Below are positions 4,726-27,442 of a DNA stretch of 64,000 bases, in pieces. Under the pieces are notes generated by a model that was given only the letters and a program-made list of their open reading frames with translations, made no database searches and had not been told where the DNA came from. Numbering within the stretch: the stretch's first letter is position 1; every line of letters starts with the position of its first letter. This DNA is from Schmidtea polychroa. Its lineage: Eukaryota. Location: NCBI GenBank assembly GCA_044892525.1, contig CM097886.1, positions 122,388,001 to 122,452,000 on the forward strand, given 5' to 3'. The position numbers were made by a program, and so were the translations under genes.

Positions 4726-5826
4726 ATGGAATTTAGTATATATTTACAAAGAACCGATAATGAGAAATATGAGATAAGTTATATTGAACAGAAGAAAAAG
4801 GATTTTAAAAAAATGGAAAAAGAAGACAAAGAAATCGAGAAATTAATTGAAGAATATGAAACAGTATTTATGAAACATAAATGGGACATTGGTAAAACAG
4901 AAATAGTACAACATAAGTTAAATACGACAGGACCTCCAATTGTTATTAATCCTAGACGTCAACCAGTACACCTCTCATCGAAAATAGAAGAAAATATTAA
5001 AGAGATGGAAAAGAATGGTATTATAAAGAAATGCGAATCACCTTGGAATTCGCCACTGGTATCTATTAAAAAGAAAGACAAAAATGAGATAAGGGTTTGC
5101 TTAGACTTTCGAGCATTAAATTTAGTAACAGAGCGACCTATTTTCCAATACCAAATACAGAAGAAATGATGGACGCTCTAAATGGATCGATATTTTTCAC
5201 AACACTGGATTTAGGCAGTGCAAATTACTAAGTGGAGTTAACTGAAGATTCGAAAAAGAAAACGGCTTTCTCTACAAAGAATGATCAATATTACTACAAT
5301 CGTATGCCAGTTGGGATAGCAACGGCTCCTGCTACTTTCCAGAAATTAATAAACAAAGTGCTTCGATCACTAAATTGGAAAGAAGCTGTAGTGTACATGG
5401 ACGACATCCAAATATTTTCAAGAACTAAAGAGAAACACATAAAAAGAGTAAAAAATGTTCTAGACAGATTTAAAACAGCTGGATTAAAGTTGAGTCGAGA
5501 GAAATGTCACTTTTTGAAATGTGAAACTAAGTTTTTAGGCCATTTCATAAATAAAGATGGTATAAGAACGGAGGATCATAAAATTGACGCAAAAAACAGT
5601 TTGAAAAACCAACATGTTTAAGGAGGTTGAGGAGTTTTTTGGGACTTACGAAGGTTCATTGAAAATTATACAAAGTTTGCTAAGAACTTGGAGAAACTAT
5701 GTGGGAGTAACCAAAAAAAAATTAATATGGACAGATGAATGTGAAATAGCGTTTCAAGGTATGAAAGAACAATTAATGAGAGCTCAAATACTGGGTTTCC
5801 CGGATTTTAAAAAGAATTTATATTAG
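4726..5826 (+). pseudogene. pol: Frameshifted RT / RNase H 5' part of the small Gypsy
   Basis: SPWNSPLV..KKD...RVCLDFRALN, MPVGIATAPATFQ, YMDD, KFLGH. Split by stops and frameshifts; interrupted by solo LTR B. Confidence 0.9.
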
Positions 5827-8800: not shown

Positions 8801-9977
8801 ACGTGGTTTTCCCCGCCACAAATGAAGGAGGAGCGAAACAAGATATTAAGACTGGAGCACTGCCGTGACAGTCTCCTCGAGGAAAGCAGGTGCCAGAGGC
8901 TCACGATAAAAGCCCAATCAGAGGCCTTGCATAAGATATACACGGACGTCGAAATTTCAAAGCGAGTTCGGGAATATCCGATCCAGGACGGAACAAACGT
9001 GTTTCCAATTCACCATCAAATGTCCGTAGCCCCATCGACAACCAACTGCAAAGGACATGGCTCCCAATTATCTCCTATTCTCGCTCCGTCTCTCTCAAGT
9101 GCCAGGCCCCCAACACAAGGCCCATCGGACCCCATTTTAGCTCCAGTACTGCAGCCTCATTCGACTCAACCAGCGGTCAACCTCGCGTCATCGAATCGGA
9201 AACGCAAGTGGCCGACGCGCGCCGAGAAAAATCAAAAACGCAGGGATGCCATCGCTGCGCTGGAAGCTTCGTTATCAGTGGCCCAGTCCACCATCAAAGA
9301 GATCTCGAATTCTCACGTGATTCCGGCCAAAGAAATATTCCGAGTAATTCCGGCCGATGGTATCAAATATCTCGCGGATCGCCGATTACCTGTGGATATC
9401 GACGAAGTATTCACCGACGGAGAAGTTTTCTGATCAGTCAAGCCAACGACAATACCTATTTCTTGCTCTCGATAGACCTACCGACTAACCCTCTGGTGTA
9501 AAATAACTTATCTGTAGTTTGCTTGTTATTTTAGTAAACATTGGTGTAACATGTTTTGTTTTTGGTAATAGATGTATGTAATGTAAACAATATAATTTCT
9601 TGGGATTAGATGATTTGTTTGCGAGAAGGATAAGTGAAATAAACGGATTGGATGATAAACTGAAAATGTGTCATTGAATGAAGGTCGTCCCTTTGGACCA
9701 GGGTCGGACCAGGTATAAGTGTAGAAAGGGGTAAGTCCTTCTAAGGCACCGTGGAATCCGAACTGAGAAGGGGTTAGGAGTAGTCCTAAGGCAGGGGCTC
9801 ACCTGCTAACCTCTTCCGACCTGTGCGGGCAGCACCAACGTGGAACATCACCACGGGCTCACACGCGGGAATATTAGCAAGATCATCTGGGGTATGGCGG
9901 GGAATGGCCTGAGAGGAACGAGGATGATTCGTATGTTTGGTAATGATGTTAATCTTTTTCCCCTGCATAACCCAACA
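5827..9977 (+). mobile_element. Solo LTR copy B (4,151 bp) of the giant-element family, inserted in the RNase H of the small Gypsy
   Basis: tgttggg...cccaaca termini; 4-bp TSD ttag (5823-5826 and 9978-9981). Removing it restores ...KN[F]ILDTDAS. Confidence 0.92.
8672..9433 (+). CDS. LTR-encoded hypothetical protein (253 aa), homologue of 33101-33865
   Basis: Intact ORF; RPCFSC, LEHCRDSLLEESRCQRLTIK, NRKRK, PTRAEKNQKRR. Confidence 0.85.
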   Translation: MTAPIKSGKDLRPCFSCSDKNEDIRKLHLYIGALKKRIDLYEGTWFSPPQMKEERNKILRLEHCRDSLLEESRCQRLTIKAQSEALHKIYTDVEISKRVREYPIQDGTNVFPIHHQMSVAPSTTNCKGHGSQLSPILAPSLSSARPPTQGPSDPILAPVLQPHSTQPAVNLASSNRKRKWPTRAEKNQKRRDAIAALEASLSVAQSTIKEISNSHVIPAKEIFRVIPADGIKYLADRRLPVDIDEVFTDGEVF

Positions 9978-11547
9978 TTAGATACTGATGCAAGCTTTGA
10001 TAGAAAAGGAGCGGTTTTATCACAGTTAGATTCTAATGGAAATGAAAGAGTGATTGCGTATGGATCGCGAGCAATGAGTACACAGGAATTAGGGTATTGC
10101 ATCACTAGAAAGGAATTACTTGCAATTTATTATTTTACGTGCATTTGCGATTTAGACTTCGAACGGATCACAAGGCAATAACATTTATGCTTAAAACCAA
10201 AAAACGTATTACACCACAGTTTCAGACGTGGATTAACCATTCTAGTGGTCTGGATATGGATTTAGAATACAGGAGAGGCAAATTACACGTTAATGCTGAT
10301 GTTTTATAATGGAGCGAATGTGACACATGCATACAGTACCAAACAATACACGAAGAACCAAAGAAAAGAAGGTTGAAGACAAGAATTCTAGCGTTGATGC
10401 TAGGAGGTGATGGTTCCATGTGCTAAAAGGACTCTATAGAGATTGCTGATATAAGAGAAAAAATACTGAAAGGAGAAAAAATCAAATTTGATATTAACAA
10501 CAATGTGATAACAACGATCAAAAGGAAAATATGGATACCAAAGGAAAAGATAAGACAATTCGTAGAACACACTCATCAAACTTTATGCCACACAGGGGTG
10601 ACGAAAGTACAAGATTATATTTCACAAACATTTGATTTTGAAAATAAACGTGAACAAATTGAGATTGTAATCCACAGTTGTAAAGAATCCCAATGAAGAA
10701 AAACATTGACAATACAAACGAAAGAAACTATTTTAAAGCATAATAATTCGAATTTATCTGAGACGATTTTTATTGATTTTTGTGGACCTTTAAAGAACAA
10801 TTCATGGAAAGAGATATATTGGCAATTATGGATCAATTAAGTAGATATGTCATTAAATGCAGTATCAAGACAAGAGGAGAATACAACAGCAGCTATTTTG
10901 AAAAATAATTGGATTTTAAAATACGGAGCACCAAAGTTTATACACTGCGACAGAGGGAAAACATTTGAAGCAAAATTAATACACGACTTATTGAACATTT
11001 ACCGAATCAAAATGGTATACTCAAACACTTATCATTATTAAGCTAATGGAATGATTAAAAGACAATTCAGAACCATAAGGGATGCAATTCAAATTTCATT
11101 AAAAGATAAAATGTATAAAAAGTTGGCAAATTTACTGCCAGAGGTGGAATTTATGCTTAATTCGACGATTCAGAGATCAATAGGCTTTAGTCCTGCGGAA
11201 GTAGTATACGACAAGAAAATATACAAAGAATGGCAATCATGGTATAATAAGGATTCAGATGTTAAAGAACACGTGAATATTATGAGTAAAAAAGAGAAAC
11301 AATAACTGCACAATTGGAAAAGAATGAAAGAAAAGTATCATATAACAATAAACTACGAACAAATCGAGAATTTAATGTTGGAGACGTTGTGTGGATAGAA
11401 GAGGATGTTATCTCAAAAGAGGATAATAGATATGATGGTCCTTGTGAAATAATTGATAAACGGCACAATCGTAGCTATGTGGTATAAATGCCAACTGGGA
11501 AAATAAAAATTAGAAATATAGAATCACTAAAGGAATATAAAAACTGA
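9978..11547 (+). pseudogene. pol: RNase H 3' part and integrase remnants of the small Gypsy
   Basis: LDTDAS...GAVLSQ...ERVIAYGSR resumes exactly after the TSD. H..LCH.G, IHCDRGKTF, SPAEVVY; multiple stops. Confidence 0.88.
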
Positions 11548-12417
11548 AAAAGATTATTAAAAGAAGGGGTGTAAGATGTATTTATATAAACTATTCATAT
11601 TTATAGTATTTATATTTTATTATTGGAATGTTGTTGTATGTTGAAATTGTTCGAAATATTATTTGGATTTGAATTAATTTGCCAGAAATTAATTAAGAAA
11701 ATACATTGTTTAAATAATTTATAATTATTCACGACTTTGAATTTATAAATGTCTAAAATTAAGACCAATCCTAACAAAGATGAAAAATAATGTGAAACTT
11801 GTGTAAAGGAAATGAAAATTTAGTTTCTATTCGAAGTGTTCTTTTTAAAATGAAGTGGAAAATTAAATAAATAATAACTCTAAAATTATTAATTCGCCAA
11901 TACGTTTTCAAAAGTCTAGTGAATATAATAAAACTTACAAACATAAATTATTTTTAATACTTATCGCCAGCTTACGATAAATTCGAATTAAAGAAAAACT
12001 ATTTGAAGTATTAATTATTATAACAATCACAACCTTTTCTATTAATACATTTTAATCCTAAAACACAAAATTTGTAGTTCACAAAAATTGGAAAAACTAA
12101 AATTTTTTTGTTATATTAAATTTAAAGCAAAATATACTTCCCTGAAAACAGACCCTGGAAATTGTTGTGATACTAAGAATAAAATTGTACTCTTAAAGAA
12201 AAAGAAATTACTCCACGATAACAATTATTGACAAATAGCAATTCTTAAAAGAAAAATTAACACAAAATTTAGTATATAAACTGAGGGATTACTCAGTCAA
12301 ATCACCCCTAAAATAAAAGCTTTCAAGGAGAATTGCCAATTCAGAAATTGATATTGCAATCAAACTTAAAGCATACTTATTTACATATCCGAGCTCAGGA
12401 AGCTGCAAGTAATTGTT

Positions 12418-13245
12418 TTATTTTTTAAATTTGTAATTGTGATAATTCTCCCATTTTTTGATCTCCTTTTCGAGGTTCTTGATATTTTCGTCATACATCT
12501 TTCTCTCGTTTTCCAATTTCTTGTTCTTACCGGCTAGCACTATATTCCTTTGTTCTAGTGCCCCCTTATAGCCGTTATTGTCTCTTTCAAGATCTGCCAC
12601 CTTGTTTACGAGTTCGACGATTCTACCTGACTGTTGTAGAATCATCTCTTCCATGGCGGTATTCTCCTGTTCCTTTATAGACAGTTTCATGGCCAGATGC
12701 CTTTCAAATTCCATGGCCTTGGTCTGCCAGGTTTGACTTCTAGCTGCTACTTTCCGGAGCCTTCTTAGCTCTTCTTTCTGATCCAGGTTTTCTTCCCATT
12801 TCCCTTGATTACTCTCGTGTTCCAATCTCTGCGGTAATTCTCTCATCTCTTTTTGGATTTCTCGATGTTGTTTTTTCCACTTTCTGGCTTCTGCTAGTAG
12901 TTGGCGGGTCTTTCTTTCCTCCTTTTGTTTTTCTATTTCCCGCTTCTTATTCTCATCCGTTAGTCTTTTTCTTGACTCTTGTACCAGCTGCTTCAGGTAA
13001 TGCCCGTGCGCCTCTTGCCTGGTATTTTCTAATGCCGACCATTTGGCGGCTCTTTTGCAGGCCTCGGCCTCCGCCCGTAAATTCTGTACTAACCACTGGA
13101 ACTGGTGGTTTTCCCATTCTCTCGCCTCTTCGAGGTAATTTCGTGTTTGATTTGATAATTGTGCCATCACTTTGGCCCATCTTTCTCTATGTATTCTACT
13201 GATGTTTATTTCGTTATTTGGGGCTTCCGTTTGATCTTGAGTCAT
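12418..13245 (-). CDS. Coiled-coil protein, C-terminally truncated by the duplication junction
   Basis: 275-aa E/K/R-rich ORF. Its last residues (YHNYKFKK*) come from the flank at 12418-12445. Confidence 0.65.
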   Translation of the reverse strand: MTQDQTEAPNNEINISRIHRERWAKVMAQLSNQTRNYLEEAREWENHQFQWLVQNLRAEAEACKRAAKWSALENTRQEAHGHYLKQLVQESRKRLTDENKKREIEKQKEERKTRQLLAEARKWKKQHREIQKEMRELPQRLEHESNQGKWEENLDQKEELRRLRKVAARSQTWQTKAMEFERHLAMKLSIKEQENTAMEEMILQQSGRIVELVNKVADLERDNNGYKGALEQRNIVLAGKNKKLENERKMYDENIKNLEKEIKKWENYHNYKFKK

Positions 13246-13463: not shown

Positions 13464-14852
13464 CTACTCAGTCCTACTCTTCCCGTCTCGCCTCACCGCT
13501 ATTTTTATGTATATAGTGTCGTTTCTCGTCATGTCTTCTACTTTCCGCTGTAGGATGAAATTCGGTGCTCCAGTTGCTGGTCCTTCTTCTTCCAAGGGCC
13601 TTTGGTAACATACGAGGTTTCCCGCTGTATGGAAACTCTGTTCATGTATACTTTGATAGTTCATCATTGCGAGGTCTATTTTTGCTTTGAATGGCCATTC
13701 TATTAACTCGTCGTATAGCCCTTTGCACATCAAGAAAAATACTGAGAAATGCGTTCCGTATGCACTTCCATCCCCATTGGGGTATGCTTTCATTTTCATT
13801 TTATACCCGTATTTCCATGAGTAGAATGCTGGACTTAGTAATGTTGTATCCTTTCCATTTCTCGCTCTCTGCATCTTCTCTTTTACTCCCGTTATTTTCC
13901 ATATGTATGGAGCCGTTGGTATTAATTCGTTGAGGTTTAATTCGCTTACTTTTTGATGTAGTTCTTTCACCATAATGTTGCTAGTTTCCACTAGATCTGT
14001 CTGTATCTTTGTACTTGTTCTCGCCTCTTCAAATGCTTCCTTTTCTTCCAATAGTTCTTTTACCAACGCTTTTAGCGAGACTATTTCTCTTTCTAAGTTT
14101 TCGGTTTTTCTTTCGTTTTCTTGTAATACCGTTGACCATATTTCCGCGTGTGTTGATACGTTTTCTGCTAGATGTTGGGGTAATTCCCCTCGGTGTAATT
14201 GTTTCTGACATCCCCATTTTCCTAGCACACACGTTATCTTTTTCCTTTCACATTCTCTGAGATGTTGAGCGAGTCTTATTACTCCAGATTTATCGCATTT
14301 ATTGGGACATTCTCCTCTGAACCCTGCGCACACTTTCTCCTCTTGTATGTTGTGATGTTGACTGATTAATTTTTTCCAGGTGTCGGTTTCTCCGCAATAC
14401 TCACATTTCTCCAGTCTTTCTTCGCATCGACTTTGATGTTCTGCTTCTTCATTGACTTTAATCTCTTCTTGGCAACGTTTGCATTGACTGATTTTATATT
14501 CACATTGCTCCATATGTTGCCTCACTTCCCATATCCCTCCTCGCCAATTGCATGGGGTGTTTTTACATCCTAAATTTGAATTTAACATATCTTTCACGGC
14601 TGCTTTATCTTCGTTTGTATCTCCCAAACTTGTTATCATGGTTTCTTTACATACTGGGCACCATTGTGGTCCCTTCTTTATTATCACCTCTACACATTCT
14701 CTGCACATTCTGCATCCACATCTGGTTTGGTGAGGTTCTCTTAATAAGCTCTTGCATATTCCACACGTTACATGGTTGTGTATTCGAATTGTGGTGGACT
14801 TTCTGACTTGTTCAACAATTTCTTTGAATTCTTCTCGTTGTCGCTTATCCAT
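13464..14852 (-). CDS. Intronless TRAF-family protein (RING, TRAF zinc fingers, coiled coil, MATH/TRAF-C)
   Basis: RING CGIC..LLREP.QT.CGC..CREC...CPVC; zinc fingers C.N..C.W.G....HMEQC, CEYC, CPNKC, HLREC, GC; MATH YIWKI...SPAFYS..YGYKM...YPNGDG...GTHFSVFF...KG.YD..I.WPF. Paralogue not assignable by eye. Confidence 0.93.
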   Translation of the reverse strand: MDKRQREEFKEIVEQVRKSTTIRIHNHVTCGICKSLLREPHQTRCGCRMCRECVEVIIKKGPQWCPVCKETMITSLGDTNEDKAAVKDMLNSNLGCKNTPCNWRGGIWEVRQHMEQCEYKISQCKRCQEEIKVNEEAEHQSRCEERLEKCEYCGETDTWKKLISQHHNIQEEKVCAGFRGECPNKCDKSGVIRLAQHLRECERKKITCVLGKWGCQKQLHRGELPQHLAENVSTHAEIWSTVLQENERKTENLEREIVSLKALVKELLEEKEAFEEARTSTKIQTDLVETSNIMVKELHQKVSELNLNELIPTAPYIWKITGVKEKMQRARNGKDTTLLSPAFYSWKYGYKMKMKAYPNGDGSAYGTHFSVFFLMCKGLYDELIEWPFKAKIDLAMMNYQSIHEQSFHTAGNLVCYQRPLEEEGPATGAPNFILQRKVEDMTRNDTIYIKIAVRRDGKSRTE

Positions 14853-14941: not shown

Positions 14942-15325
14942 TTATTGGCTGGAAGAGTCGGCCTCTTGTCCGCCCTCTTCCCTACTGGTTAACCATTCTG
15001 ACCAGTCTTCTATCTCCTCTCGCTCCATCTCTTCCGCGATTCTTATTAACTCCTCTTCTTGCACCTGGCTGTATCGTGATATTCGGTCTATCTCTCGCTG
15101 CATTTGTTCTATTTTTATTCGTTGGTCTTCGATTATTCTTACATAACTGAAGCCTTTATTTAAACTTTCGACTAAGCTTCTTTGTACAGCGAGTCCTTGT
15201 ACCTGTAAATTCGAAATCACTTGAGTTAACATTGCACATTGTTGTTTCCACATCTCCTCGGTTGTCGTACTGTGATTTACTTCCTCGCCTATTCGCTCCA
15301 TTCTTAATTTATATATACTTTTCAA
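14942..15325 (-). CDS. Hypothetical coiled-coil protein (probable ATG start at ~15301)
   Basis: Intact, co-oriented ORF between AT-rich spacers; E/Q/R heptad-like composition; no recognisable domain. Confidence 0.55.
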   Translation of the reverse strand: MKSIYKLRMERIGEEVNHSTTTEEMWKQQCAMLTQVISNLQVQGLAVQRSLVESLNKGFSYVRIIEDQRIKIEQMQREIDRISRYSQVQEEELIRIAEEMEREEIEDWSEWLTSREEGGQEADSSSQ

Positions 15326-15469: not shown

Positions 15470-18400
15470 CTATATACGTGAGCTTGGAGGGCGCTGAGCA
15501 TTCCAGGCCTCCACCCACTGTTCCTGCTTGATATTACTTGGTCGTTTTACATGATGTTGAAAATTTCTTATTCTGGCCATTTCTAGTTCTCCGCGATGCC
15601 GTCTATCTTTGATTATTTTTATTGTCCCCCCCGTTATGATTAAAAAGGCCCCTGTTATTATTATGCCGCTGATCCACATCATCTGTTTTACGCTTATAAT
15701 TTCCGCTTTTTCCTTGTTCATTATTGTTGATATTGCCTCTGTGCTTTTTAGATTACCGTCTTTGCCATTTCCTTTTATCATTCCTCGTATTCTTGCTATT
15801 TCCTCGTTCATACCTTCCTTTGCCATTTTTTGTATTTTCTCCATCTCTTCCTCTGATACATAATTGTCCTGATATTTCTCACCGGTTTTCTTGCGTTTTC
15901 CTTGCTCATCTTTTTCGTCATTGATTTTTCTTTTCTTCCCTCTTTTCCCAGGGTATCGTCGACATTCTCTTTCTGGACCGTTTCTCAGGATACAGACCGT
16001 ATATTCCTTTGGTGGTTGTTGTTGCGTTACGTATTGTAGACAATTTTCTCCTGGTCCTAGCCTTGAAATACACACTTTGTGCTCTTTTCTTGGTTGAAGC
16101 TGTGTTATCACTATTTCACCTCCTTTACTTAGGTGTACCTCTTTCCATTTGACTTTTGTTATTTTCTTCCCGTTTCGATGTTGGTATGCTTCTTGTATTC
16201 CCACTTCCGTTATTGGTTCTGCATCTTCATTTTTTAACACTAGTCTCTGATAAGCTCTAGACATACATCTTCCTAATATACACCTTTCTTTTAAATCCCA
16301 TTCCTCTTTTAGATCCCATTGCTGCTCTTGTACTTGTTTTTTCTTTTCTTGTTTTAGTTCTTCCTCTTTGTTGTCCTTATTTTCCGTTTCTTTGGCTTCT
16401 TTTATCGTTCTCATTCCTCCCTGGGCTGTTATCATTTCCACCATTGTTAATACGAGTATCATTATCATCATATTTGTCTCCATTTCTTTGTTGGTAAAAA
16501 GTAGACATACCCTCTGTTTTCCACTATTCGTCTTTTCTTCTTGCTTTATTCGGTTTCTCGGGTTATTTTCCTCTTTTTTCCTACTCGCGTCGTTATTTTC
16601 TTGATTATTCTCCTCTGATTTCTCTTTCTCTTTATTCCCGTTTCGACCTTTTTCATTATTATCGTCGTCTTTATCGTCTTTATCTTTATCGCCTTTATCT
16701 CCCTCGCTGTCGTTTGAAATGTCGTCCTCGACATTTATATCATTCAACAATCTGCGGTATGCCGTTAGCACTCTGTTTCTTGCTAATTTTGCTTCGAATT
16801 CGAACTCCTTTCTGCCTGTTGCTACATGTCTCTTTCTATTCCATTCTTTCACTAATTCTCTTAATTGTATCCGACGATGTTTTCCGATTCGCTTTTGTTC
16901 GTTTTGATTTTGCGTGAATTTGAGATCTTCCCTGTTTAATACGATCATTATGATTTTTGGAGTTCCTCCTTTTGTTAGTGTATTTTTAACCATAGCATTT
17001 ACTCCGTTTTCGTAAAACTCATTTATATTTATTGCATATTTATTGCTTTGCGGTATTTTCCATGTTAGCAATAATTTCATGGCTTCTAAGCTCATCCGTA
17101 TCGTGTTCCATTGGAACTGCGACGTGTTTTTACAGATATTTTCTACCTCAGTTCTTGTAGCATTTTTACAAATGAATCTAATCATTTCCAAGTTTGGTTG
17201 TATTGTTGCCCAATCCATGGCAGAATTTCCTTCGTTTGATATTTCGTCAAGTCTCGAACCTGATTGATGTAGTATATGTAAGGTTTTCGGGTGTATCTTT
17301 GTTATTGCTGCATACATCATTGCTGTTTCTCCTTGTTCATTTTTTGCATTAGATTCTTCTCCCAAGTCTCTAAGAATTCTTATGATGGTTATTGCTCTGT
17401 TTTCTTTTGCTGCTAAAATGGCTTGTTGTAATGGTGTTCTTGAATCTTTTGTTGGTAAGGTGAATGCTAGTGGTATAAATGCTTTTATTTTTCCTATGTC
17501 TAGATTTGTGGTCTGGTCTCTCGCGTAGGTGTGTACTGTTTTTGTTATTTTTGCTAGTATCGCTTCATCGGATAGATCTTGCATTTCTTCAAAGAATACT
17601 TCTTTAGCCTTACGTATTACTATCTCTTGGTCGGAGTTTATTATCTTTGGTTTACTTGTTGTTGCTATATCGCTTATTATTTGATCGACTCGTTTCTCAG
17701 ACTTTCTTACTGTTATTTTCTTGATTTTAATCTTTTTCTTGTTCGAACTGTTAATGCGTTCCTCTGCCGTTAGAACTTGAATAATACTTAGGTAAGTTTC
17801 TCGAATGTTATTCATATTTTCCATCATATATAATACACTCACGGTTTCCCAAAATTTTACTTGTACTTTATCGGTAAATTGAGATATAGCTTTTTCGAAG
17901 TCGGTAATTCGTTTTCTGATTAGTTGTTCGTCTTTGTGATTTGAGAACTTTATGCCACGTTGTAGTAGTTGATTTGGAATTTCGAATAGGTGATGTCCTC
18001 TCATCGCTTCTCTCATCAAGGTGTTTTCTCCTTTGGTAAATGTTTCGTTTATATCTACCATATAATCGTTTTTGATCGGGTTCCTCCATGCAATTAGTAA
18101 TCCAGCAATTGTTATTAATTTCTCTTTGATTGCAGTTAATAGCCCGTCATACATGTTTCCTATCTCCCTATTATCCTCGTATGATAATAGATCTACTAAG
18201 ATTATGAAGGCTTTCGTACTTTTCCCTTCGATTGCATGATGTAGTGCATTTTTCTGGTTGTGATCCTGTGTGGTTATCTTTGACCCAGTTTCAAGTAATG
18301 CGATAATAATATCTTTAGCTTTATCCCGATTGGCTGCTATCATTAGTGGAGTGTAACCTTGGTTGTTTTCTTGATCCGTCGAAATGTTACAGTCGCGAAA

Positions 18401-19555
18401 TGCTTCGATCGTTTCCAGTATTTGTTCATTATTCCCGACCTTTAAAAGTTTGTGCAGCGGTGTATCTCCATAATGGTCTGTGATCGTAAATAATACAGGC
18501 CATTGACTTTTTACTACCCTGAGTAATGGGTGTGTTCTTTCTCGGTTTGCATAGTTTTCGATCATGGTTAGCAGACCTCCCAATATCTCAAAATCTAATC
18601 GGTCTTTTGCCCATCCGGGCATTTTAGCTTTCACTTCCTTTATGATTTTCTCGGCTTCTGATGGTCGTAACCCCAATCGGTTACCTGTTGGTTCGTTTAT
18701 CTGCTGTAACATATTTATTCTATATGTTTGTGATCTTGTTGTTAATGTTCGCCCTTCCGGCTGGCTGGTGGCTGTTTTCGGTATTGGCTTACATCGTGCC
18801 ACATTTACATATATTGGCCTCGTGAAGGGGTTGTTTACCAATCGTACTCTCACATTGGTTTCTCCGATGAATAGAATCTCATACGGACCTTTGCCGTTTC
18901 GTTGTAATTTTTTGGTGGTTCCTGGAATTAATTCCGGTGTTTCGATCATCACCCAATCACCGGTTTGAAATGTATGTTGTTTAACGTTTTTCTTTCTATC
19001 ATGCAGATCTTTGTAACTTTCCTGATAAAACTTTATATTTAATCCCGCAGTTTCCCAGATTTCTTGCATTCTTTCCTTGAACTTGGTTACATAATCGTCT
19101 ATTTCCATGTATTGTGATATTGGTGGCTGATATTCTAAATCCATTGGCATATTGCATTCTCTGCCGTACATCAACTTAAACGGACTCATCTTTGTGGACG
19201 CGTGAATCGACATTCTGTAAGCCATTAAACATAATTTTATATACTCGTCCCAGTCGCGTTGATGACGATCGACGTAATTTGATAACATTTGAATCAGTGT
19301 TCCATTGAATCTTTCTGTCATACCATTAGTTTGTGGATGGTACGGTGATGTTCTTAATTTTGCGATCTTGAAGTAGTTGGTGACTTCGCTCATTATTTCA
19401 CTCATGAAGTTTGTTCCTTGATCAGTTAATATCTGTTTTGGTGTTCCATATCGACAGCATATCTCCTCTACTAGTATTTTTGCGATTGTTCTTGCTTTCT
19501 GATCTGCCATAGCGAATGCTTCGGGGAATTTTGTCAAATAATCTGTGATTACCAA
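15470..19555 (-). CDS. Integrase catalytic core and GPY/F module fused to two ankyrin-repeat modules, a charged low-complexity region and a C-terminal membrane segment (1361 aa)
   Basis: TDQGTNF, YHPQTNGMTERFN, SPFKLMYGR, KGPYEI. Ankyrin motifs GDTPLH, GYTPLMIAA, KNALHHAI, RTPLQQAI, GETAMMYAA, GNSAMDWA. Hydrophobic MMIMILVLTMV and WISGIIITGAFLIITGG. Confidence 0.9.
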   Translation of the reverse strand: MVITDYLTKFPEAFAMADQKARTIAKILVEEICCRYGTPKQILTDQGTNFMSEIMSEVTNYFKIAKLRTSPYHPQTNGMTERFNGTLIQMLSNYVDRHQRDWDEYIKLCLMAYRMSIHASTKMSPFKLMYGRECNMPMDLEYQPPISQYMEIDDYVTKFKERMQEIWETAGLNIKFYQESYKDLHDRKKNVKQHTFQTGDWVMIETPELIPGTTKKLQRNGKGPYEILFIGETNVRVRLVNNPFTRPIYVNVARCKPIPKTATSQPEGRTLTTRSQTYRINMLQQINEPTGNRLGLRPSEAEKIIKEVKAKMPGWAKDRLDFEILGGLLTMIENYANRERTHPLLRVVKSQWPVLFTITDHYGDTPLHKLLKVGNNEQILETIEAFRDCNISTDQENNQGYTPLMIAANRDKAKDIIIALLETGSKITTQDHNQKNALHHAIEGKSTKAFIILVDLLSYEDNREIGNMYDGLLTAIKEKLITIAGLLIAWRNPIKNDYMVDINETFTKGENTLMREAMRGHHLFEIPNQLLQRGIKFSNHKDEQLIRKRITDFEKAISQFTDKVQVKFWETVSVLYMMENMNNIRETYLSIIQVLTAEERINSSNKKKIKIKKITVRKSEKRVDQIISDIATTSKPKIINSDQEIVIRKAKEVFFEEMQDLSDEAILAKITKTVHTYARDQTTNLDIGKIKAFIPLAFTLPTKDSRTPLQQAILAAKENRAITIIRILRDLGEESNAKNEQGETAMMYAAITKIHPKTLHILHQSGSRLDEISNEGNSAMDWATIQPNLEMIRFICKNATRTEVENICKNTSQFQWNTIRMSLEAMKLLLTWKIPQSNKYAININEFYENGVNAMVKNTLTKGGTPKIIMIVLNREDLKFTQNQNEQKRIGKHRRIQLRELVKEWNRKRHVATGRKEFEFEAKLARNRVLTAYRRLLNDINVEDDISNDSEGDKGDKDKDDKDDDNNEKGRNGNKEKEKSEENNQENNDASRKKEENNPRNRIKQEEKTNSGKQRVCLLFTNKEMETNMMIMILVLTMVEMITAQGGMRTIKEAKETENKDNKEEELKQEKKKQVQEQQWDLKEEWDLKERCILGRCMSRAYQRLVLKNEDAEPITEVGIQEAYQHRNGKKITKVKWKEVHLSKGGEIVITQLQPRKEHKVCISRLGPGENCLQYVTQQQPPKEYTVCILRNGPERECRRYPGKRGKKRKINDEKDEQGKRKKTGEKYQDNYVSEEEMEKIQKMAKEGMNEEIARIRGMIKGNGKDGNLKSTEAISTIMNKEKAEIISVKQMMWISGIIITGAFLIITGGTIKIIKDRRHRGELEMARIRNFQHHVKRPSNIKQEQWVEAWNAQRPPSSRI

Positions 19556-21956
19556 TATATATATATATATATATATTCCCTCTATCTGATTCTGGTAGTG
19601 GACCGACTACGTCCATTGATATCATAGTCATTGGTTCTGCTGGTACTGGCATTGGTTTTAATGGTGCCTTCCATTTTGTTCCCGTGTTTTTTCTGGTTGC
19701 GCAAGTTATGCAATTTTTCACCCATTCCGTTACATCCTCGGTCAATGTAGGCCAAAAATATTTTTGTTTCATTCGTGCCAACGTCTTTTTAGATGACATA
19801 TGTCCTCCGAGTCTTCCGTCATGGTATTGTGTTAGCAGATCTTTACGTCTATTCTCGGGAATGCACATCAGTCTTTTCTCGCCATCCATTATCAATAACC
19901 AATCTTTCTCTATTATATATCGATGTCGATGTTTATCCATATGCTCTTTCAATTTTTGATCTTTCTCATATACCTCTGCTTTTCCAGTTTTTACATATTC
20001 GATAATTTGTTTCAACTCGTCATCATCTTGCTGGTCTTTTCGTAGTTGGCAAAAATCTAAATCTTCCGCTACCATTAGACATATTCGTTGCATTTCGTGA
20101 TCTACTAAATCTGGAAAGATAAATCTGGACATACAATCCGCATTGGCATTCGCTCTTCCCGCTTTGAATTTTATGAACGGTGAATATTCTTGTAACTGCA
20201 TTGCCCATCGCATCAATCTACTTGAAGCTTCTTTGTGTTGGCCAAGCCATACTAGTGGTTGATGATCTGTTGTGATACATATTTCGTGTCCCCATAACAA
20301 ATATCGAAAATGTTTAATCGCTTGTATAATTGCTAACGCTTCTCTCTCGGTTACGGAATAGTTTTTCTCATGCTTTTTAAACGTTCTGCTGTAGTATCCA
20401 ATCACTCTTTCTTTTCCTTCTTCATCCAGTTGTCCTAATATTGCTCCGGCTGCATATCCACTTGCATCTGTTGCTAATAAGAACGGTTTCTTGAAATCAG
20501 GATGTACTAGTATTGGGGCTTCAATTAATTTATCTCGCAATGTCTCAAATGCTTTTTGTTGTTCTGCACCCCAAATAAATGAAATATCCTTTTTCACTAA
20601 TTCCTGTATTGGTTTCGCAATACCTGCATAGTTTTTGATGAATTTTCGATAATATCCGCATAATCCGAGAAATTCTTGAACTTGAGTGACAGTTTTTGGT
20701 GCTGGACATGTTTTTATTTTTTCTATGTTTCTTGGATCTGGTTCTTTGCCTTTTGCTGACACTATGTGTCCTAAGAACGTAACTTTTTCTTTTGCCCAGT
20801 CACATTTGGATGGTTTAAGTTTCAATTTCCATTGTCGTAATCGAACGAACACGTTTCTGATATCTTCCAAATGTTGTTCGAATGTTGCTGAATATATTAA
20901 TAAATCATCAATATATACCATGCACTGCTTGATCCCGTGCGTGACGAAATTCATACATCTCTGAAATGATGCTGGGGCATTGGTCAGTCCAAATGGCATT
21001 TTCCTGAATTGATACAGGTCTCGACCCAACGTGAAGGCCGTTTTCTCCTTGTCTTCCTCTTTAACTTTGATCTGCCAATATCCGCTTTTTAGATCTAAAG
21101 ACGTAAAATATGCGGCCCCTTGCAGCATAAGTAACATCTCATTGATGTCTGGTAACGGGTATGTGTCTCTTTTTGTTACGGCATTTAGTTTCCGATAATC
21201 GATACAGAATCTCTGGGTACCGTCTTTTTTCTTCACCATGACTACTGGAAATTGCCATGGCGAACAACTTGGTTCGATCACTTGTGCATCTAGCATTTTT
21301 TGTACTTCTGCTTCGGCTATCTCTTTTTGCTTCTCTGCTAGTTTGTATGGACGTAGTGCGATTGGAGTTTCGTCTATTAATGGTATTGCGTGTAATGTAA
21401 CATCGCATGCTCCCAAATCTAAGTCCGAAATAGCGAATATATCTTTATATTCTATCAATAATTGTTGAAGTCTTTCCTTTTCCTTTTCCGTTAGCAATGT
21501 GCTATCGATTGTCCATAATTCGTCAGCTTTCGTTGTTTCATTGGTGATTTTTGGTAATTCGATGTCTATCATGGGTGTCAATCTACCCAATCTTTCATTT
21601 TCATATATGATCTTCTCTTCTTCCTCGAAATTTGTGATGTTAATTGGTATTTCCCCTTCGTCATTAATTGTTATTATTTCTCTTGCTAATGGTAATTCTC
21701 GTCGTTTTTCGAATGATTTGCTTGGCTCAAAAATGGCTTCTCCTTCCATTCCTGCATCCACTTTTATTTGACATATCATCTGGGATTTTGCTGGTACAAT
21801 TATTTTCTCCGGACATCTGATTATTGCGTTCATTTTGCATATTCTACCCATTTTATCTTTTAGGCACATTGTTGTTAGATCTATTACTACTTCTTTGAAC
21901 AATTCCGGCATTAAATCCGTTCCGATTATACATGGTTCACTCAGTTTGGGTATCAC
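19422..21956 (-). CDS. pol: Pol: protease C-terminus, reverse transcriptase, RNase H, integrase N-terminus; goes out of frame at the (AT)11 tract near 19555-19576
   Basis: RFCIDYRKLN, LDLKSGYWQI, MPFGLTNAPASFQ, YIDD, TFLGH; RNase H ATDASG..GAIL.Q, EREALAI, TDHQPL; H..H...CITC; MDVVGPLP. Confidence 0.95.
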   Translation of the reverse strand: MIPKLSEPCIIGTDLMPELFKEVVIDLTTMCLKDKMGRICKMNAIIRCPEKIIVPAKSQMICQIKVDAGMEGEAIFEPSKSFEKRRELPLAREIITINDEGEIPINITNFEEEEKIIYENERLGRLTPMIDIELPKITNETTKADELWTIDSTLLTEKEKERLQQLLIEYKDIFAISDLDLGACDVTLHAIPLIDETPIALRPYKLAEKQKEIAEAEVQKMLDAQVIEPSCSPWQFPVVMVKKKDGTQRFCIDYRKLNAVTKRDTYPLPDINEMLLMLQGAAYFTSLDLKSGYWQIKVKEEDKEKTAFTLGRDLYQFRKMPFGLTNAPASFQRCMNFVTHGIKQCMVYIDDLLIYSATFEQHLEDIRNVFVRLRQWKLKLKPSKCDWAKEKVTFLGHIVSAKGKEPDPRNIEKIKTCPAPKTVTQVQEFLGLCGYYRKFIKNYAGIAKPIQELVKKDISFIWGAEQQKAFETLRDKLIEAPILVHPDFKKPFLLATDASGYAAGAILGQLDEEGKERVIGYYSRTFKKHEKNYSVTEREALAIIQAIKHFRYLLWGHEICITTDHQPLVWLGQHKEASSRLMRWAMQLQEYSPFIKFKAGRANANADCMSRFIFPDLVDHEMQRICLMVAEDLDFCQLRKDQQDDDELKQIIEYVKTGKAEVYEKDQKLKEHMDKHRHRYIIEKDWLLIMDGEKRLMCIPENRRKDLLTQYHDGRLGGHMSSKKTLARMKQKYFWPTLTEDVTEWVKNCITCATRKNTGTKWKAPLKPMPVPAEPMTMISMDVVGPLPESDRGNIYIYIYIGNHRLFDKIPRSIRYGRSESKNNRKNTSRGDMLSIWNTKTDIN

Positions 21957-22498: not shown

Positions 22499-25400
22499 TC
22501 AATTTCTAAATCTGTCTAAAAATTTTGGTTTGTTCTTTTTCAGTTGTGTCCTTGTTGCTTCATCATACATTGTTTTCCGAAATCGTCTACCGACTTCCTC
22601 GTCAGTCCCTTTTATTTTTGTCAGTATTTTTATTAATCGTTTTATTCTGTGTATATCTTTAGAATGACCGTGCAACACCATTGTTTTTGCCAAAAATGGT
22701 AGAAAACCTACTATCAACTTCCAATTTACTTTCTTTTCTTTCTTATAGATATCAAAACACGCTAACATTTGAGTCAATATTACTCTGACAATCTGAATAA
22801 TTAAGATGATTCCCAATATTCCTGCCATCATTTGACCGAACACTAGAAATCTTCCCCACATTGCTTTCATCATGTTTGACGTGGCTTGTTGAAAATGATC
22901 GGGTGACAATAATAGTTCGTAATTGGGACCTGATTGGAAATTCGTTCCCCCAGTTATGGTAACCATATTTGATAGAATGGATTCTCGCCTTGCTGGGAAT
23001 AGTACGTTTAGTCGTGCCGTTTCTAAATCCTCTGCTGAGTACATACCTGCTTTTGACACATCAATTGGTTTGAAATCTTGCTCCGTTGCGAGTTCTATTA
23101 ATCCAAACTTTTTAGGCTCTTGTACTTCGGTTTTTACCGGTAACATTATCCATTTCCCATCGGGTTTTTCATATAACGGTCCGTATGCATTTGAACAGTT
23201 GAAGGTGTTCGGATAAAATCCAATTGGGTTCATAATTCTAGTGACGGGTTGAACGAATCTGTTTTGCCCTTTGTAACTAATTTCCAACTCGTTTGCGCAT
23301 TTCCCTGGTGGTATTGTGGGTTTTCTTGGCAGTCGCGCAAACGTCTTGGTACATGCATATGTATACATTACCTCTCCCACCATTCTACCAAAATGTCCAT
23401 CCGGTAACGGGAGTGATGGCATTGTGTTATCTGGGTGTGTTATTGCGATGGCTAATTTTGTTTTTAGTATCTCTTTATTCAATGAACAGTCATTTTGTAT
23501 AAGATCGTAGTATACTTTTTGCATTGTCGTTTGTCCTCGATGAAATAAAAAGTCCATTTTGTTGTTGGCATAAAGGTACAACTTCACGTCCTCCGTTGAT
23601 ACTTTTCCTACTGCTCGGTCTATTACTTGCCTTGACATGTAGATACCTGCGTAGTTCGTCCGATATACTATGCTGTCACATTTGGTGGTCTCTTTTTCTC
23701 TGATGAATCTCATACCGATATCTGGATCATCTGTAATTAATGCCGTTGGTGTTTTTTGTGTTGTGAGTCTCTTTTCTTTGGGGGATGGTGGAACTGGTTT
23801 CCCATTTCGCATCCTTACGTTTCCATTCTCTTCATCGTCATCTTCGTTTTCGTAAATTTCTCCTTTTACTTCATTGAATAGAGCACTTTTTAACAATTGG
23901 AGTCGGCATTTTTGGGTGTTAGCTTCATATATTATAGTCGAAATTCCCGTTCTACACACGTTTTCCGTAGCTCTGCATGCTGGGTTGGTTTTCATTTGAT
24001 AGTTGTTTGCGTCGAATTGTGCTTCGTATTCCTTCAACTCCAATGTGTAGGACTCAATTACTACTACTCCCGAGATCACTTCTCCTCTGATCGTATATGT
24101 GCCTCCGTTACATGATCCATCAGTTGATTTTACTCGTCCGGCTACATAGATACTTTCCGTCTTGATCATTCCGCTTTGTCCGTGTATTGTTACTCCATCC
24201 CTGATTCTCATCGCTCCGGTTCTAAAAAGCTCTTTACAGTCTTCCCGTTGTATAGGTACTATTTCTTTATCTAATCCAGGTAATATGAGGGTTGAATATG
24301 AGTATTGTCCACAGTAGTATGCCAACACTTTCTTCGATACTACGCATTCTCTAGCTTGCGTCCTAATGAAATCTGATTCTTGGTATACGTGATAGGAGAC
24401 TTTCTTTTTTACTATATCTAATTTATTCGGAGATGCCTGTCTACATTCCTCTATATCTCTCAGGGAGTATCTTTCTCCTATTATTGAATTGTCACAGTCG
24501 TAAATTGTAAATCCAGCTGCTCCACTGGTGCAGAGCATCCATATCATCATGGTCATCATTAGTGAATTAATCGACGCTTTTCTGCTGGCTGGGTCTTTCA
24601 ATGGCAATTCCCATTCCAGTTCGTTTAGCAATTTCTTCAACCGAATTTGCATCGATCTCTCTTGCTCGTTTTTTCGTGGCGCTTGTATGAGTCTTTTCCA
24701 CCCACCGGCACGGATAATATGTGGTTCGATTGTATTTTCAATGATTGTAACGGTCATTTCTACATGATTTGCGAATTGTTTGTTAGGTATTTTCCTTGCT
24801 GCTAATCCCATCAAATTGTACATTAGATACGTTAATACTACTAAATGATGTTCGTCGTCGTTTGCGTTTAAAGTTAATTGTTCAATTACCCTTCTTGTCT
24901 CTTCCCAATCGGTTTTAGTGGTTTTTGTCTTCTCTTTGATTAATTTCGGAATTATTCCGGATATTGTGTTCCATAGCTGTCTGGCATCTACGCTTGCTAC
25001 TTTTCGTTGCCATAACCGTCTCAATTGCGGGTTTGTTATTATTAACATATCCTTTACTAGCTCTCGTATCCATTTTTCACCTCTCTCGATTGTTGGTTGA
25101 GCCTCTTTTAGATCCCATACTATTTTATCCAATTTCTCTAATCTGACTTGTCCTTGTTCCTGTTTCAACTGTTCTCTGGTTTTAAATTCTGGTTTTTCTC
25201 CTTGCTTCTTGGGTCTTCCTTTTGCCCGTTTCTCCATCATTGTTCCAGCTTCTCTTGTCGTTTCATAATTCGGGTTTCTCTCGTTATCTGTTCTTGGCAA
25301 TGAGCTATCGTTGTTTCTCAGCCACTCATTCCATTCGTCTATTATTTTGTCCGTTTGACCTTCTGGTGTTGGTTTCGTCGGTCCTTTTGGTCGTTGGAAT

Positions 25401-27397
25401 TGTTCGTCGGTTTCGGTTTCTGTTGTATTATCGATAATTTCCTCTATGTTCAGCTTATTTGGTTGTTGATAGCTAGTTGACGGTTGGCTTGTTGTCCATA
25501 TTTCGGCTCCTGTCGGCCATCTTACCAGAATTGGTGATCTTTCTCCAGCTCCTTCATCGCTGTCTTCTAATATGATTTCCTCGATTTCCTCGGTTTCATT
25601 CGATTTACTCGCCACTTTGTTAGGGCTTGGTGTACTCAAGCTACCTTTCGTAGTTTTGCTGGATTTGCTCTTCCTTTTAATCGGTTTTCCCAATGTTTCT
25701 GCCATTGTCAATACATTGATCTCCCCCAATCTCATGGGTGTTATTCCGACATCTGCATTATCATCTAACGATTTTCCGAATAGTTGTAGGTGAAATGGAG
25801 TTTCGTATGCTAACTTCTTTTTTAACTCTCTGATCTTTGTTGTTGGATGTACTTTTATATCCTCAATGCTTTTGTCGGGATACTTGACTCGGATACGATA
25901 CCTTTCCTGGGTATCTTGTGCCCATTCTTGGTTTCTCCATTTCCTAATAATTTGTTCTAGCTGTTCTGGGTACCATTCGTTATATTGTCGGTATTCCTCA
26001 ATCGCTTTCGCCATTTCTCTTAGATTGTGGATATTCTCTGATGTCTTTAGGATGATGTTAGCCAATGCTACTACTTGTCGTTTTTGATTTTTTGCTCCCG
26101 TTGCTAAGATATCACCTAATTGTTTATATCTTTCCTTCTCTTCTCGTTCTCGAGCTTCCATCGCTTCTTCGCTGTCCATATCGGCATATTCGCGTTCTTT
26201 CTTTCTCATCGCATGAATATGTCTGGTTTCCGTTTCACTTTCTGACGTAACATCCGTTTCGCTTTCGTCGTCCGATATCGATTCTATTTCGTCCTCTTCG
26301 TATTTTGGAGGTTCATCTTCCTCTTCCTCTGATTCACTTTCTGTCTCACCAATCTCTGTTTCTACGAAAATTCCTTTCCTGACTTCCCACTCTTTATTTT
26401 CCGCATTCCACATCCTTTCCCAGGGAGTTCGTCTGCAAGATCTAGTACTTAGTTTCTTTATTTTTCCTTGTAGTTCCTTTTCCTTTAACCACTGTTGATG
26501 AATTTCAATTATCTCTACTGATTTTTTGTATAGCGTTTTCATCCTGTCTCGTATTTCTTTCTGGTATGTTACATCTCTTGTTCGGAATTCGTCCATGGGC
26601 AATATTCTGATGATTTGATGATTATCCCACATTCCCATTTCACTTAACGAGGTATCGTCTTCGGCCCGTAATATTATTTTGTCGTACATCATGACTACGT
26701 CATCTATCATACCATCACTACTCTCGCTTCGTACCTTTTCCGTTATCTCTTGGTTTATCTTTGTTACTAAGTCATCCACCGTACTCTGATTACTCATCTT
26801 TATTCGTCGTTTCTCCTCGTTTGGTAACCATATGGTTATTTCTAACTTCTGCGGTTGCGTTTCTTTTAATCTTCCATATTTGTGGATCAAATTTATGGTT
26901 CTCCAATCGCTCATCCTGAGCAATTCTGTATCTCGTAATCGGCTCATTAGTTCATGCATATCTGGAGTTCGTCTTGCTATGAGTAAATCCCAGTTATCTT
27001 CGACTTGTTCTTGAATTTGTTTGATTAGTTTATCTAGATTCCGCCTTAAAGTGCATTGTTTTATTTGTTCCAATTTCAGCTTGATATTGAAATCGTATTC
27101 AGCCTTGGCGTCTTTAGCCCATTCATGAACATTAGTTGGTTGCTTCTCTTTATGCAACTTCAATATTTGAGTTTCTCCTGGCCAGATCAATGCATCTATT
27201 AGGTGCATGTCTGGCTTAATTTGTTCTCCTTGGTATTGATATAAATACTCTTTCTTTCTCGAGCTGCCCAAATGTTCTCTTATCCAATCGAAAAGATCGT
27301 CTGTAACTGTATTTTTTATCCATATTCTCTCGAGTCCTTTACTCGTTCCGATTTTTATTACGTAGCGTGTTGTCTCCGCTTGTTTCATTTTTTCCAT
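22499..27397 (-). CDS. env: 1632-aa ORF: N-terminal accessory region (3 ubiquitin-like domains, Bcl-2-like domain), then signal peptide and chuvirus-like envelope glycoprotein with C-terminal TM
   Basis: Hydrophobic leader ending ...SGAAG|FTIYDC (mature start 24511). Cys pattern YDC...YSL.D..EC, YYCG..S, C..L..TG, AG....DG.C.GG.Y, VVV..Y.L resembles chuviral G. TM WGRFLVFGQMMAGILGIILIIQIV. BH2-like IEPHIIRAGGWKRLI at aa 890-904. Confidence 0.82.
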   Translation of the reverse strand: MEKMKQAETTRYVIKIGTSKGLERIWIKNTVTDDLFDWIREHLGSSRKKEYLYQYQGEQIKPDMHLIDALIWPGETQILKLHKEKQPTNVHEWAKDAKAEYDFNIKLKLEQIKQCTLRRNLDKLIKQIQEQVEDNWDLLIARRTPDMHELMSRLRDTELLRMSDWRTINLIHKYGRLKETQPQKLEITIWLPNEEKRRIKMSNQSTVDDLVTKINQEITEKVRSESSDGMIDDVVMMYDKIILRAEDDTSLSEMGMWDNHQIIRILPMDEFRTRDVTYQKEIRDRMKTLYKKSVEIIEIHQQWLKEKELQGKIKKLSTRSCRRTPWERMWNAENKEWEVRKGIFVETEIGETESESEEEEDEPPKYEEDEIESISDDESETDVTSESETETRHIHAMRKKEREYADMDSEEAMEAREREEKERYKQLGDILATGAKNQKRQVVALANIILKTSENIHNLREMAKAIEEYRQYNEWYPEQLEQIIRKWRNQEWAQDTQERYRIRVKYPDKSIEDIKVHPTTKIRELKKKLAYETPFHLQLFGKSLDDNADVGITPMRLGEINVLTMAETLGKPIKRKSKSSKTTKGSLSTPSPNKVASKSNETEEIEEIILEDSDEGAGERSPILVRWPTGAEIWTTSQPSTSYQQPNKLNIEEIIDNTTETETDEQFQRPKGPTKPTPEGQTDKIIDEWNEWLRNNDSSLPRTDNERNPNYETTREAGTMMEKRAKGRPKKQGEKPEFKTREQLKQEQGQVRLEKLDKIVWDLKEAQPTIERGEKWIRELVKDMLIITNPQLRRLWQRKVASVDARQLWNTISGIIPKLIKEKTKTTKTDWEETRRVIEQLTLNANDDEHHLVVLTYLMYNLMGLAARKIPNKQFANHVEMTVTIIENTIEPHIIRAGGWKRLIQAPRKNEQERSMQIRLKKLLNELEWELPLKDPASRKASINSLMMTMMIWMLCTSGAAGFTIYDCDNSIIGERYSLRDIEECRQASPNKLDIVKKKVSYHVYQESDFIRTQARECVVSKKVLAYYCGQYSYSTLILPGLDKEIVPIQREDCKELFRTGAMRIRDGVTIHGQSGMIKTESIYVAGRVKSTDGSCNGGTYTIRGEVISGVVVIESYTLELKEYEAQFDANNYQMKTNPACRATENVCRTGISTIIYEANTQKCRLQLLKSALFNEVKGEIYENEDDDEENGNVRMRNGKPVPPSPKEKRLTTQKTPTALITDDPDIGMRFIREKETTKCDSIVYRTNYAGIYMSRQVIDRAVGKVSTEDVKLYLYANNKMDFLFHRGQTTMQKVYYDLIQNDCSLNKEILKTKLAIAITHPDNTMPSLPLPDGHFGRMVGEVMYTYACTKTFARLPRKPTIPPGKCANELEISYKGQNRFVQPVTRIMNPIGFYPNTFNCSNAYGPLYEKPDGKWIMLPVKTEVQEPKKFGLIELATEQDFKPIDVSKAGMYSAEDLETARLNVLFPARRESILSNMVTITGGTNFQSGPNYELLLSPDHFQQATSNMMKAMWGRFLVFGQMMAGILGIILIIQIVRVILTQMLACFDIYKKEKKVNWKLIVGFLPFLAKTMVLHGHSKDIHRIKRLIKILTKIKGTDEEVGRRFRKTMYDEATRTQLKKNKPKFLDRFRN

Positions 27398-27442
27398 ATA
27401 CTTCTTTATTATCGCTTTCTCCTCGCTTGGTATTAAATCTTT

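Follow-up and report, generated by a model that had tools for sequence, protein, structure and literature searches.

What becomes of ankyrin repeats that are encoded in frame behind a retroelement integrase: do they stay on the enzyme and steer integration, or are they cut free to act on the host? The question is raised by a stretch of 64,000 nucleotides from Schmidtea polychroa (NCBI GenBank assembly GCA_044892525.1, contig CM097886.1, positions 122,388,001 to 122,452,000 of the forward strand; hereafter the window), which carries a giant Ty3/Gypsy element on its minus strand. An earlier note, made from these letters alone, had seen the ankyrin repeats and proposed either an IκB-like NF-κB inhibitor released by the protease or a tether directing integration. 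Here, the repeats form two copies of a module of about 260 residues, duplicated long ago and placed in frame behind the integrase of what is almost certainly a Burro-type element. We lean towards a reading in which the protease of the Burro-type polyprotein would release an ankyrin product that acts on host signalling.

The integrase frame runs on into ankyrin repeats

A stop-free minus-strand frame extends from 19606 to 15470 and encodes 1,378 residues. Its GPY motif lies at 18889 (minus strand), and the next 1,139 codons contain no stop, in line with the earlier note's account of a frame continuing past GPY/F into ankyrins. From base composition, an open run of this length has a chance of about 1e-36, and the remaining five frames carry 19–73 stops across 16771–18721. 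The frame is composed of the following parts:

18722–19606, minus strand: integrase core, GPY/F and SH3-like C-terminal domain (rve E 5.9e-10; SH3_Tf2-1 E 0.016; MLVIN_C E 0.066)
18707–18721, minus strand: predicted protease site between the integrase C-terminal domain and ankyrin module 1 (recurring motif, trained site model)
17873–18664, minus strand: ankyrin module 1, with helical N-flank, three canonical repeats (about 18478–18167), degenerate repeats and tail (Pfam, self-alignment, AlphaFold2 model)
17639–17872, minus strand: lysine-rich linker between modules 1 and 2 (sequence, charge counts)
16856–17638, minus strand: ankyrin module 2, the second copy of the duplicated unit, with canonical repeats at about 17452–17141 (Pfam, self-alignment)
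16514–16855, minus strand: basic helix, then acidic low-complexity stretch (charge counts)
16499–16513, minus strand: predicted protease site after module 2, closing the ankyrin product (recurring motif, trained site model)
15470–16498, minus strand: C-terminal polyprotein piece, with hydrophobic N-segment, two short Cys-pair repeats and C-terminal transmembrane helix (hydropathy)

Both blocks are ankyrin repeats, as had been proposed. Each separately exceeds the Pfam Ank_2 cut-off of 27.3 bits (block 1 alone, 59.9 bits, E 3.6e-16; block 2 alone, 36.5 bits, E 7.6e-9). Repeats start at 18469, 18358 and 18256 in module 1 and at 17440, 17332 and 17230 in module 2 (minus strand), and the tails quoted in the earlier note begin at 18100 and 17074, respectively, so its block and tail positions agree with ours. 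The repeats also model as ankyrins, the point on which that note had staked its reading: the AlphaFold2 model of module 1 is an ankyrin solenoid (predicted local distance difference test, pLDDT, 86.4; predicted template modelling score, pTM, 0.79). In codon bias, the modules match Pol.

No homologous fusion of integrase and ankyrins was found in three homologue searches and a representative library, which gave only generic ankyrins or plain integrases. The searches returned 33, 22 and 66 matches, and 0 of the 22 carried both integrase and ankyrin Pfam labels; among the best 150 of 14,837 library matches, the best stretches fell nearly all on the canonical repeats. In the ESM Atlas, module 1 matched generic ankyrin clusters only, and within the window tblastn turned up no other copy of the ankyrin stretch. 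The missing fusion homologue and the broken state of the present copy would both suit a functionless passenger or artefact, in which a host ankyrin fragment was caught by chance in one dead copy. Such an origin is very improbable in view of the 1,139 open codons, the element-like codon bias, the lack of introns, an old internal duplication kept in frame and the ankyrins reported in Burro-1 to -4 (PMC6431247).

The two modules descend from an old duplication

Self-alignment pairs residues 319–567 with residues 661–907 at a score of 155, whereas the highest score among 1,000 shuffles was 77. The internal duplication noticed earlier is therefore confirmed, and its unit of about 260 residues is larger than claimed, because the N-flank is included. 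Over 266 nearly gap-free columns, modules 1 and 2 are 24% identical. The N-flank, core and tail pairs are each significant on their own (0 of 5,000 shuffles reach the score), with 52 for the N-flank pair (shuffle maximum 42) and 82 for the C-tail pair (shuffle maximum 56). As controls for module similarity, 13 source-labelled ankyrin proteins were used. The tail-to-tail score of 82 was above the best tail scores against these proteins (71 and 41) in 13 of 13 cases, and one of the 13 outscored the N-flank pair (56 versus 52, against flank 2). The ankyrin cores, with a mutual score of 66, are no closer to each other than to generic ankyrins (64–115).

The duplication is old, because no similarity between the two modules is left at the DNA level; the ratio of nonsynonymous to synonymous substitution (dN/dS) between modules, 0.51, is saturated and was not used. 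The likeness of the two tails holds, but the "tail" of each module probably consists of degenerate ankyrin repeats that belong to the solenoid. Judging by the model, each module is probably built of three canonical repeats flanked on both sides by degenerate ones.

A recurring motif brackets the ankyrin region

A short motif, [RQK][IVM][NC][AVLM][MLI], occurs 8 times in the 4,729 residues of the polyprotein frames (shuffle mean 0.47, maximum 4 in 1,000 shuffles) and is absent from all five of the five accessory open reading frames (ORFs). We presume that it resembles foamy and Ty3 cleavage sites. Three of the eight occurrences lie at expected processing points (capsid/nucleocapsid, after the protease, and RNase H/integrase), three lie in the Gag extension, one is at 18721 and one at 16513. 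A site model built from the six Gag/Pol sites ranked 18721 first of 1,374. The Gag extension (28141–27446, minus strand), with its several copies of the site-like motif, may give rise to small processed peptides.

Cleavage at both ends would yield an ankyrin product of 736 residues and 85 kDa that is basic (predicted isoelectric point, pI, 9.1). Since a transmembrane piece closes the frame, at least one cut downstream of the integrase is probably required in any case. From its sequence, this C-terminal piece looks like a single-pass membrane protein; its Cys-pair repeats span residues 1178–1189 and 1204–1215, it has no Pfam match above cut-off, and its Atlas leads, all below 0.9, are fn3-type membrane proteins. 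The motif on both sides of the ankyrin region moderately favours release over tethering, and we regard release from the integrase as probable. In the earlier proposal of an IκB-like inhibitor freed by the protease, the freeing is thus the part favoured by the motif at 18721 and 16513.

As a tether, the modules would instead stay on the integrase and direct the intasome towards some chromatin factor, in the manner of chromodomains in chromoviruses. The ankyrins do follow GPY/F and the SH3-like domain directly in frame, the usual chromodomain position (PMC13524379), the product is basic, and EHMT1 and Notch ankyrins are among the structural ties of module 1 described below. However, the site-like motif falls at the very junction of integrase and ankyrins, and the frame runs on into the transmembrane piece, so some cut would be needed to free the integrase. 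To our knowledge, a mature integrase of more than 1,000 residues would be unusual. Pfam gave no chromodomain match after GPY/F in the integrase region, and one S. mediterranea errantivirus checked in PMC13524379 likewise has none. Compared with the chromodomain of chromovirus integrases, which occupies the same place after GPY/F, the ankyrin extension has a different fold, is about ten times larger and is preceded by a predicted cleavage site. The two insertion sites in the window, a solo long terminal repeat (LTR) in a Gypsy pol gene and the element itself at a distance of about 1.8 kb from an exon of a proteasome subunit, do not suffice in number for targeting to be judged. Overall, positive support for a chromodomain-like tether was not found, and such a tether is quite unlikely.

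The element is very probably of the Burro type

The element can be laid out, in its own 5′ to 3′ direction around the integrase–ankyrin frame, as follows:

32558–36801, minus strand: 5′ LTR, 4,244 bp, with TG...CA ends (set by alignment with the related solo LTR at 5827–9977)
33101–33865, minus strand: 254-residue ORF inside the LTR, of no known family, under purifying selection (no Pfam match; dN/dS)
32533–32550, minus strand: primer-binding-site-like 18-mer just inside the LTR (by position), which we take to be tRNA-Pro-like
31643–32122, minus strand: leader ORF, coiled coil and C-terminal RING of zf-C3HC4_3 type (PF13920 E 1.8e-8, above cut-off), presumably IAP/Mdm2-like
30639–31069: 74-bp tandem array in the 5′ leader, 3.6 near-identical copies and degenerate copies
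27443–29368, minus strand: Gag, which opens the polyprotein and has CCHC zinc knuckles (PF03732 E 1.4e-10; PF00098 E 1.6e-10; first ATG)
22499–27442, minus strand: polyprotein middle, with ubiquitin/SUMO-like, Bcl-2-like and mononegavirus-type fusion glycoprotein parts and a transmembrane helix
19422–22223, minus strand: Pol, with protease (broken), reverse transcriptase, RNase H and integrase zinc finger
14942–15301, minus strand: small helical accessory ORF
13464–14852, minus strand: intronless full-length TRAF-like ORF with RING, zinc fingers, coiled coil and MATH (PF21355 E 3.6e-25)
12418–13245, minus strand: coiled-coil ORF, interrupted at 12445/12446, where a 12.4-kb duplication has its junction

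The Gag frame, the frame of the envelope glycoprotein (Env) and the integrase–ankyrin frame lie in one phase over a joint span of 4,633 codons, and Gag and Env are divided by a single stop. The Env match is strong (PF24664 E 4.3e-72), as are those of Pol (RVT_1 2.3e-37, RT_RNaseH 7.2e-40, Integrase_H2C2 5.3e-21), with RVP at E 0.0053. In the polyprotein middle, Bcl-2 (E 0.02, about 24850–24698) and Rad60-SLD (E 0.0022) remain below the Pfam cut-offs, and the Bcl-2-like domain found no Bcl-2 match among PDB sequences. The TRAF-like ORF has its best PDB matches in TRAF3 and TRAF2 (E 5e-29) and shows the A-rich third-position bias of Pol. Some annotations within the planarian TRAF/MATH expansion could, speculatively, be Burro-borne. 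The present copy is damaged: it has stops at 27443–27445 and 22499–22501 and two frame changes, one near 22150, where the protease motif lies, and one within a (TA)n run around 19555–19576, the latter splitting the integrase and leaving its N-terminal part in another frame.

Burro/GYPSM1, known from S. mediterranea and Dugesia (Girardia) tigrina, has a 4,873-residue ORF1 with Gag, SUMO-like, BCL2-like, Env, protease–reverse transcriptase–RNase H–integrase (PR-RT-RH-IN), MATH_TRAF_C, BIR and ankyrin domains, and its Env is placed between gag and pol (PMC6431247). The element in the window matches this in its Gag-first giant polyprotein, PR-RT-RH-IN order, CCHC Gag, Env in the Gag frame at the gag–pol position, ankyrin repeats, MATH/TRAF, multi-kb LTR and leader tandem repeats, and its SUMO-like and BCL2-like parts, sub-threshold as they are, stand in the Burro order before Env. 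Its Env segment is identical to that of Smed_errantivirus_5 at 106 of 187 gap-free positions, about 57% by eye count (supplement of PMC13524379). That source lists six S. mediterranea errantiviruses and gives the flatworm order as GAG-ENV-POL, which Smed_errantivirus_5 shares; its Env is closer to our element than Smed_5 is to Smed_6 (42.7%). Smed_errantivirus_5 is nevertheless a separate family and not the same element, and the text of PMC13524379 mentions neither ankyrins nor Burro. Because the domain set and order fit PMC6431247 and the Env matches Smed_errantivirus_5, we file the element, with high confidence, as a new family member of the Burro-type, envelope-bearing giant Ty3/Gypsy elements.

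The copy differs from published Burro elements in several respects. TRAF lies within ORF1 in Burro1 and upstream in D. tigrina (PMC6431247), whereas here a full-length TRAF ORF of its own stands downstream of the polyprotein. Burro polyproteins measure 4,873 and 5,140 residues, compared with a span of 4,633 codons that two stops and two changes of frame interrupt, and Burro elements exceed 30 kb with two long LTRs, while 24,356 bp with one 4,244-bp LTR are retained in this broken, 3′-truncated copy. Pfam gave no BIR match in the element, whose 3′ end is missing, leaving the leader RING only; nor did it give a dUTPase-like match between PR and RT, where the published Burro call used HHpred. Two ankyrin modules are present here, and published Burro maps may already show two blocks.

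The earlier note missed that this is a Burro-type element with ankyrins already described (PMC6431247). The presence of ankyrins in Burro elements is known in print, and the novelty of the present case is lower because of it. The module duplication, the bracketing cleavage motif and the nidovirus link given below were not found in the literature searched, on which the original Burro description or the GYPSM1 entry may bear.

Structural likeness and possible partners

The model of module 1 aligns about 190–220 residues with many ankyrin solenoids at Z 14–16. Bcl-3 (Z 15.6, root-mean-square deviation (rmsd) 3.5, 205 residues), IκB-β (Z 15.6, rmsd 3.2, 197 residues) and IκB-α (Z 14.8, rmsd 3.8, 193 residues) are among them, so that module 1 corresponds to an ankyrin domain of about six repeats, in a model biased by its own alignment. 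FEM1B (Z 16.1), KANK3 (15.8), gankyrin (15.3) and ASB11 (14.1) score alike, EHMT1 and Notch ankyrin repeats are also among the ties, and Foldseek placed gankyrin first in the PDB. In a viral structure library, the polyprotein of planarian secretory cell nidovirus (PSCNV) came first among more than 500 matches (E 1.5e-6; next 1.2e-5), over 287 columns.

These matches bear on IκB mimicry, a plausible reading. In its strict form, the modules would derive from a planarian Rel-ankyrin protein, and the released tandem would sequester Rel dimers without being degradable. Each module has the size of an IκB ankyrin domain (193–205 residues aligned). The top viral match, PSCNV, has an ankyrin domain that lies nearest host RHD-ANK proteins and has itself been proposed as an IκB mimic (PMC6211748). 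Bcl-3 gave the longest single stretch among the 60 best of 219 sequence matches (query 74–189 versus chain 3–117). The DSGxxS degron of the cellular IκB signal response has 0 matches in the 1,378 residues, which is in keeping with polydnavirus mimics that lack degradation signals (PMC3757122); mimics of this type have been shown to bind Rel (PMC3359993). An acidic stretch follows module 2, and a TRAF gene stands alongside.

In contrast, narrow PDB queries gave no preference for IκB, whose structures only tie with others. The PSCNV margin is small, and the matched fragment is taken to be the ankyrin region from its size and its coordinates, 11360–11570. For the Rel factors of planarians, PMC13563047 shows no immune role. 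PSCNV resembles the present case in its planarian host group, in embedding the domain in a polyprotein and in three recognisable repeats within about 210 residues; it differs as an RNA virus with a single domain, whose release by host proteases together with a transmembrane segment was proposed, and a common origin with the Burro module is conjectural. Likewise, IκB/Bcl-3 and the polydnavirus Ank/vankyrin mimics share domain size and fold, and the viral mimics share the lack of a degron, whereas here two modules, whose outer repeats are degenerate, stand in tandem and show no sequence preference for the family. Of the comparison with IκB/Bcl-3 and viral ankyrin proteins that the earlier note called for, size, fold and the PSCNV match therefore hold up and a preference for IκB does not. 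We consider the strict mimic doubtful.

A role as ubiquitin-system adaptor for the element's TRAF/RING ligases, or as an assembly or trafficking scaffold with a non-Rel partner, is a tentative proposal, about as likely as the strict mimic. Substrate adaptors and proteasome chaperones stand among the best-scoring structural ties (FEM1B, gankyrin, ASB11), and the element itself codes for two RING proteins as well as for ubiquitin-like domains. However, gankyrin likeness is expected because of the alignment used for the model, and Pfam, read up to an E of 1, gave no F-box/PRANC or SOCS-box match in module 1, in module 2 or in the piece that follows them.

A proposed released product acting on host signalling

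The preferred reading, a protease-released ankyrin product that acts on host signalling, treats the region as an accessory C-terminal part of a single giant polyprotein. In an intact element, the aspartic protease would cut the recurring motif on both sides of the ankyrin region, yielding an integrase of normal size and a separate protein of about 85 kDa with two ankyrin solenoids. In a weaker step, this protein would bind a host signalling factor, and together the ankyrin, TRAF, RING and Bcl-2-like products may damp immune and cell-death responses in cells expressing the element. The TRAF, RING, Bcl-2-like and ubiquitin-like domains encoded alongside suggest that the target area is immune and death signalling, and Burro accessory domains have been proposed to act on such host pathways (PMC6431247). 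If released, the ankyrin product is likely a modulator of host signalling. A Rel factor is its single most likely partner, although we put this forward with reserve.

Several points weigh against this reading. The motif was defined only after its sites had been seen; the site model was therefore retrained without the integrase–ankyrin frame. Even so, 56 of 500 shuffles match the score of 18721 somewhere in the frame under the six-site model. A model from the three clear boundary sites ranks 18721 fourth and places a position in the integrase core first, and 472 of 500 shuffles reach the score. The strict motif is also absent from the Env frame. Because of the shuffle and three-site results, support for release is only moderate. 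Besides module 2, the alignment behind the module 1 model contained 23 generic ankyrin proteins, and these push the flanks toward the ankyrin fold, and a single-sequence fold of both modules reached a pLDDT of only 35.3 and was not used. The protein-set searches returned no Burro relative. Other points tell against the strict IκB mimic as well: IκB structures score level with those of FEM1B, KANK, gankyrin, RNase L and DARPins; in the sequence search with module 1, Bcl-3 takes rank 53 of 219, and the best 60 for module 2 or the two-module profile include no IκB; the PSCNV match (rmsd 9.8, TM 0.59, 18% identity) is less than tenfold ahead of generic viral ankyrins; and the seven Rel-domain factors of S. 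mediterranea are divergent, with no clear NF-κB (PMC13563047).

Planarian genomes contain Burro elements in abundance, and the accessory domains of these elements have been flagged as possible host manipulators; the literature examined assigns them neither boundaries nor partners. BURRO1 is expressed on loss of PIWI (PMC8532177). The predicted cleavage map defines an ankyrin product of about 85 kDa to seek in PIWI-depleted worms and to use as bait. Binding to Rel, if true, would bear on whether planarians possess a working NF-κB-like immune arm (PMC13563047). A more far-reaching version, less probable still than the strict mimic, has a protease-released, non-degradable tandem IκB mimic of Rel-ankyrin origin shared with PSCNV, deployed with the TRAF, RING and Bcl-2-like products as a poxvirus-style immune-evasion kit. 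If so, the convergence of two unrelated planarian viruses on one domain would suggest that the divergent Rel factors form a real antiviral pathway.

Surroundings of the element

The 3′ end of the element and its 3′ LTR are absent, lost at 12445/12446, the junction of a direct duplication in which 1–12445 equals 35152–47597 at 99.94% identity. This 12.4-kb repeat is either a recent tandem duplication or an assembly artefact. It was also considered as a giant LTR and rejected, since the LTR proper measures 4.2 kb and has TG...CA ends, and since the repeat runs through an ORF of the element. An assembly gap of 230 N lies at 51974–52203. The proteasome-subunit exon (PF00227 E 6.8e-22) is at 38620–39207 (plus strand), about 1.8 kb from the 5′ LTR start, with its duplicate at 3469–4059, and places the element in the neighbourhood of a host gene.

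The solo LTR belongs to a related Burro-type family (5827–9977, plus strand, 4,151 bp, 4-bp target duplication; duplicate at about 40978–45129) and sits at the RNase H start of a separate, decayed Gypsy element. It carries a copy of the 254-residue LTR-internal ORF, to which the ORF of the element has 73.5% amino acid identity with a dN/dS of 0.067. Copies are at 8672–9433 and 43824–44585 (both plus strand), with a remnant at 61442–62137 (plus strand). The ORF is conserved across LTR families, at 73.5% and 41.6% amino acid identity, and a protein encoded in this way would be kept by solo LTRs.

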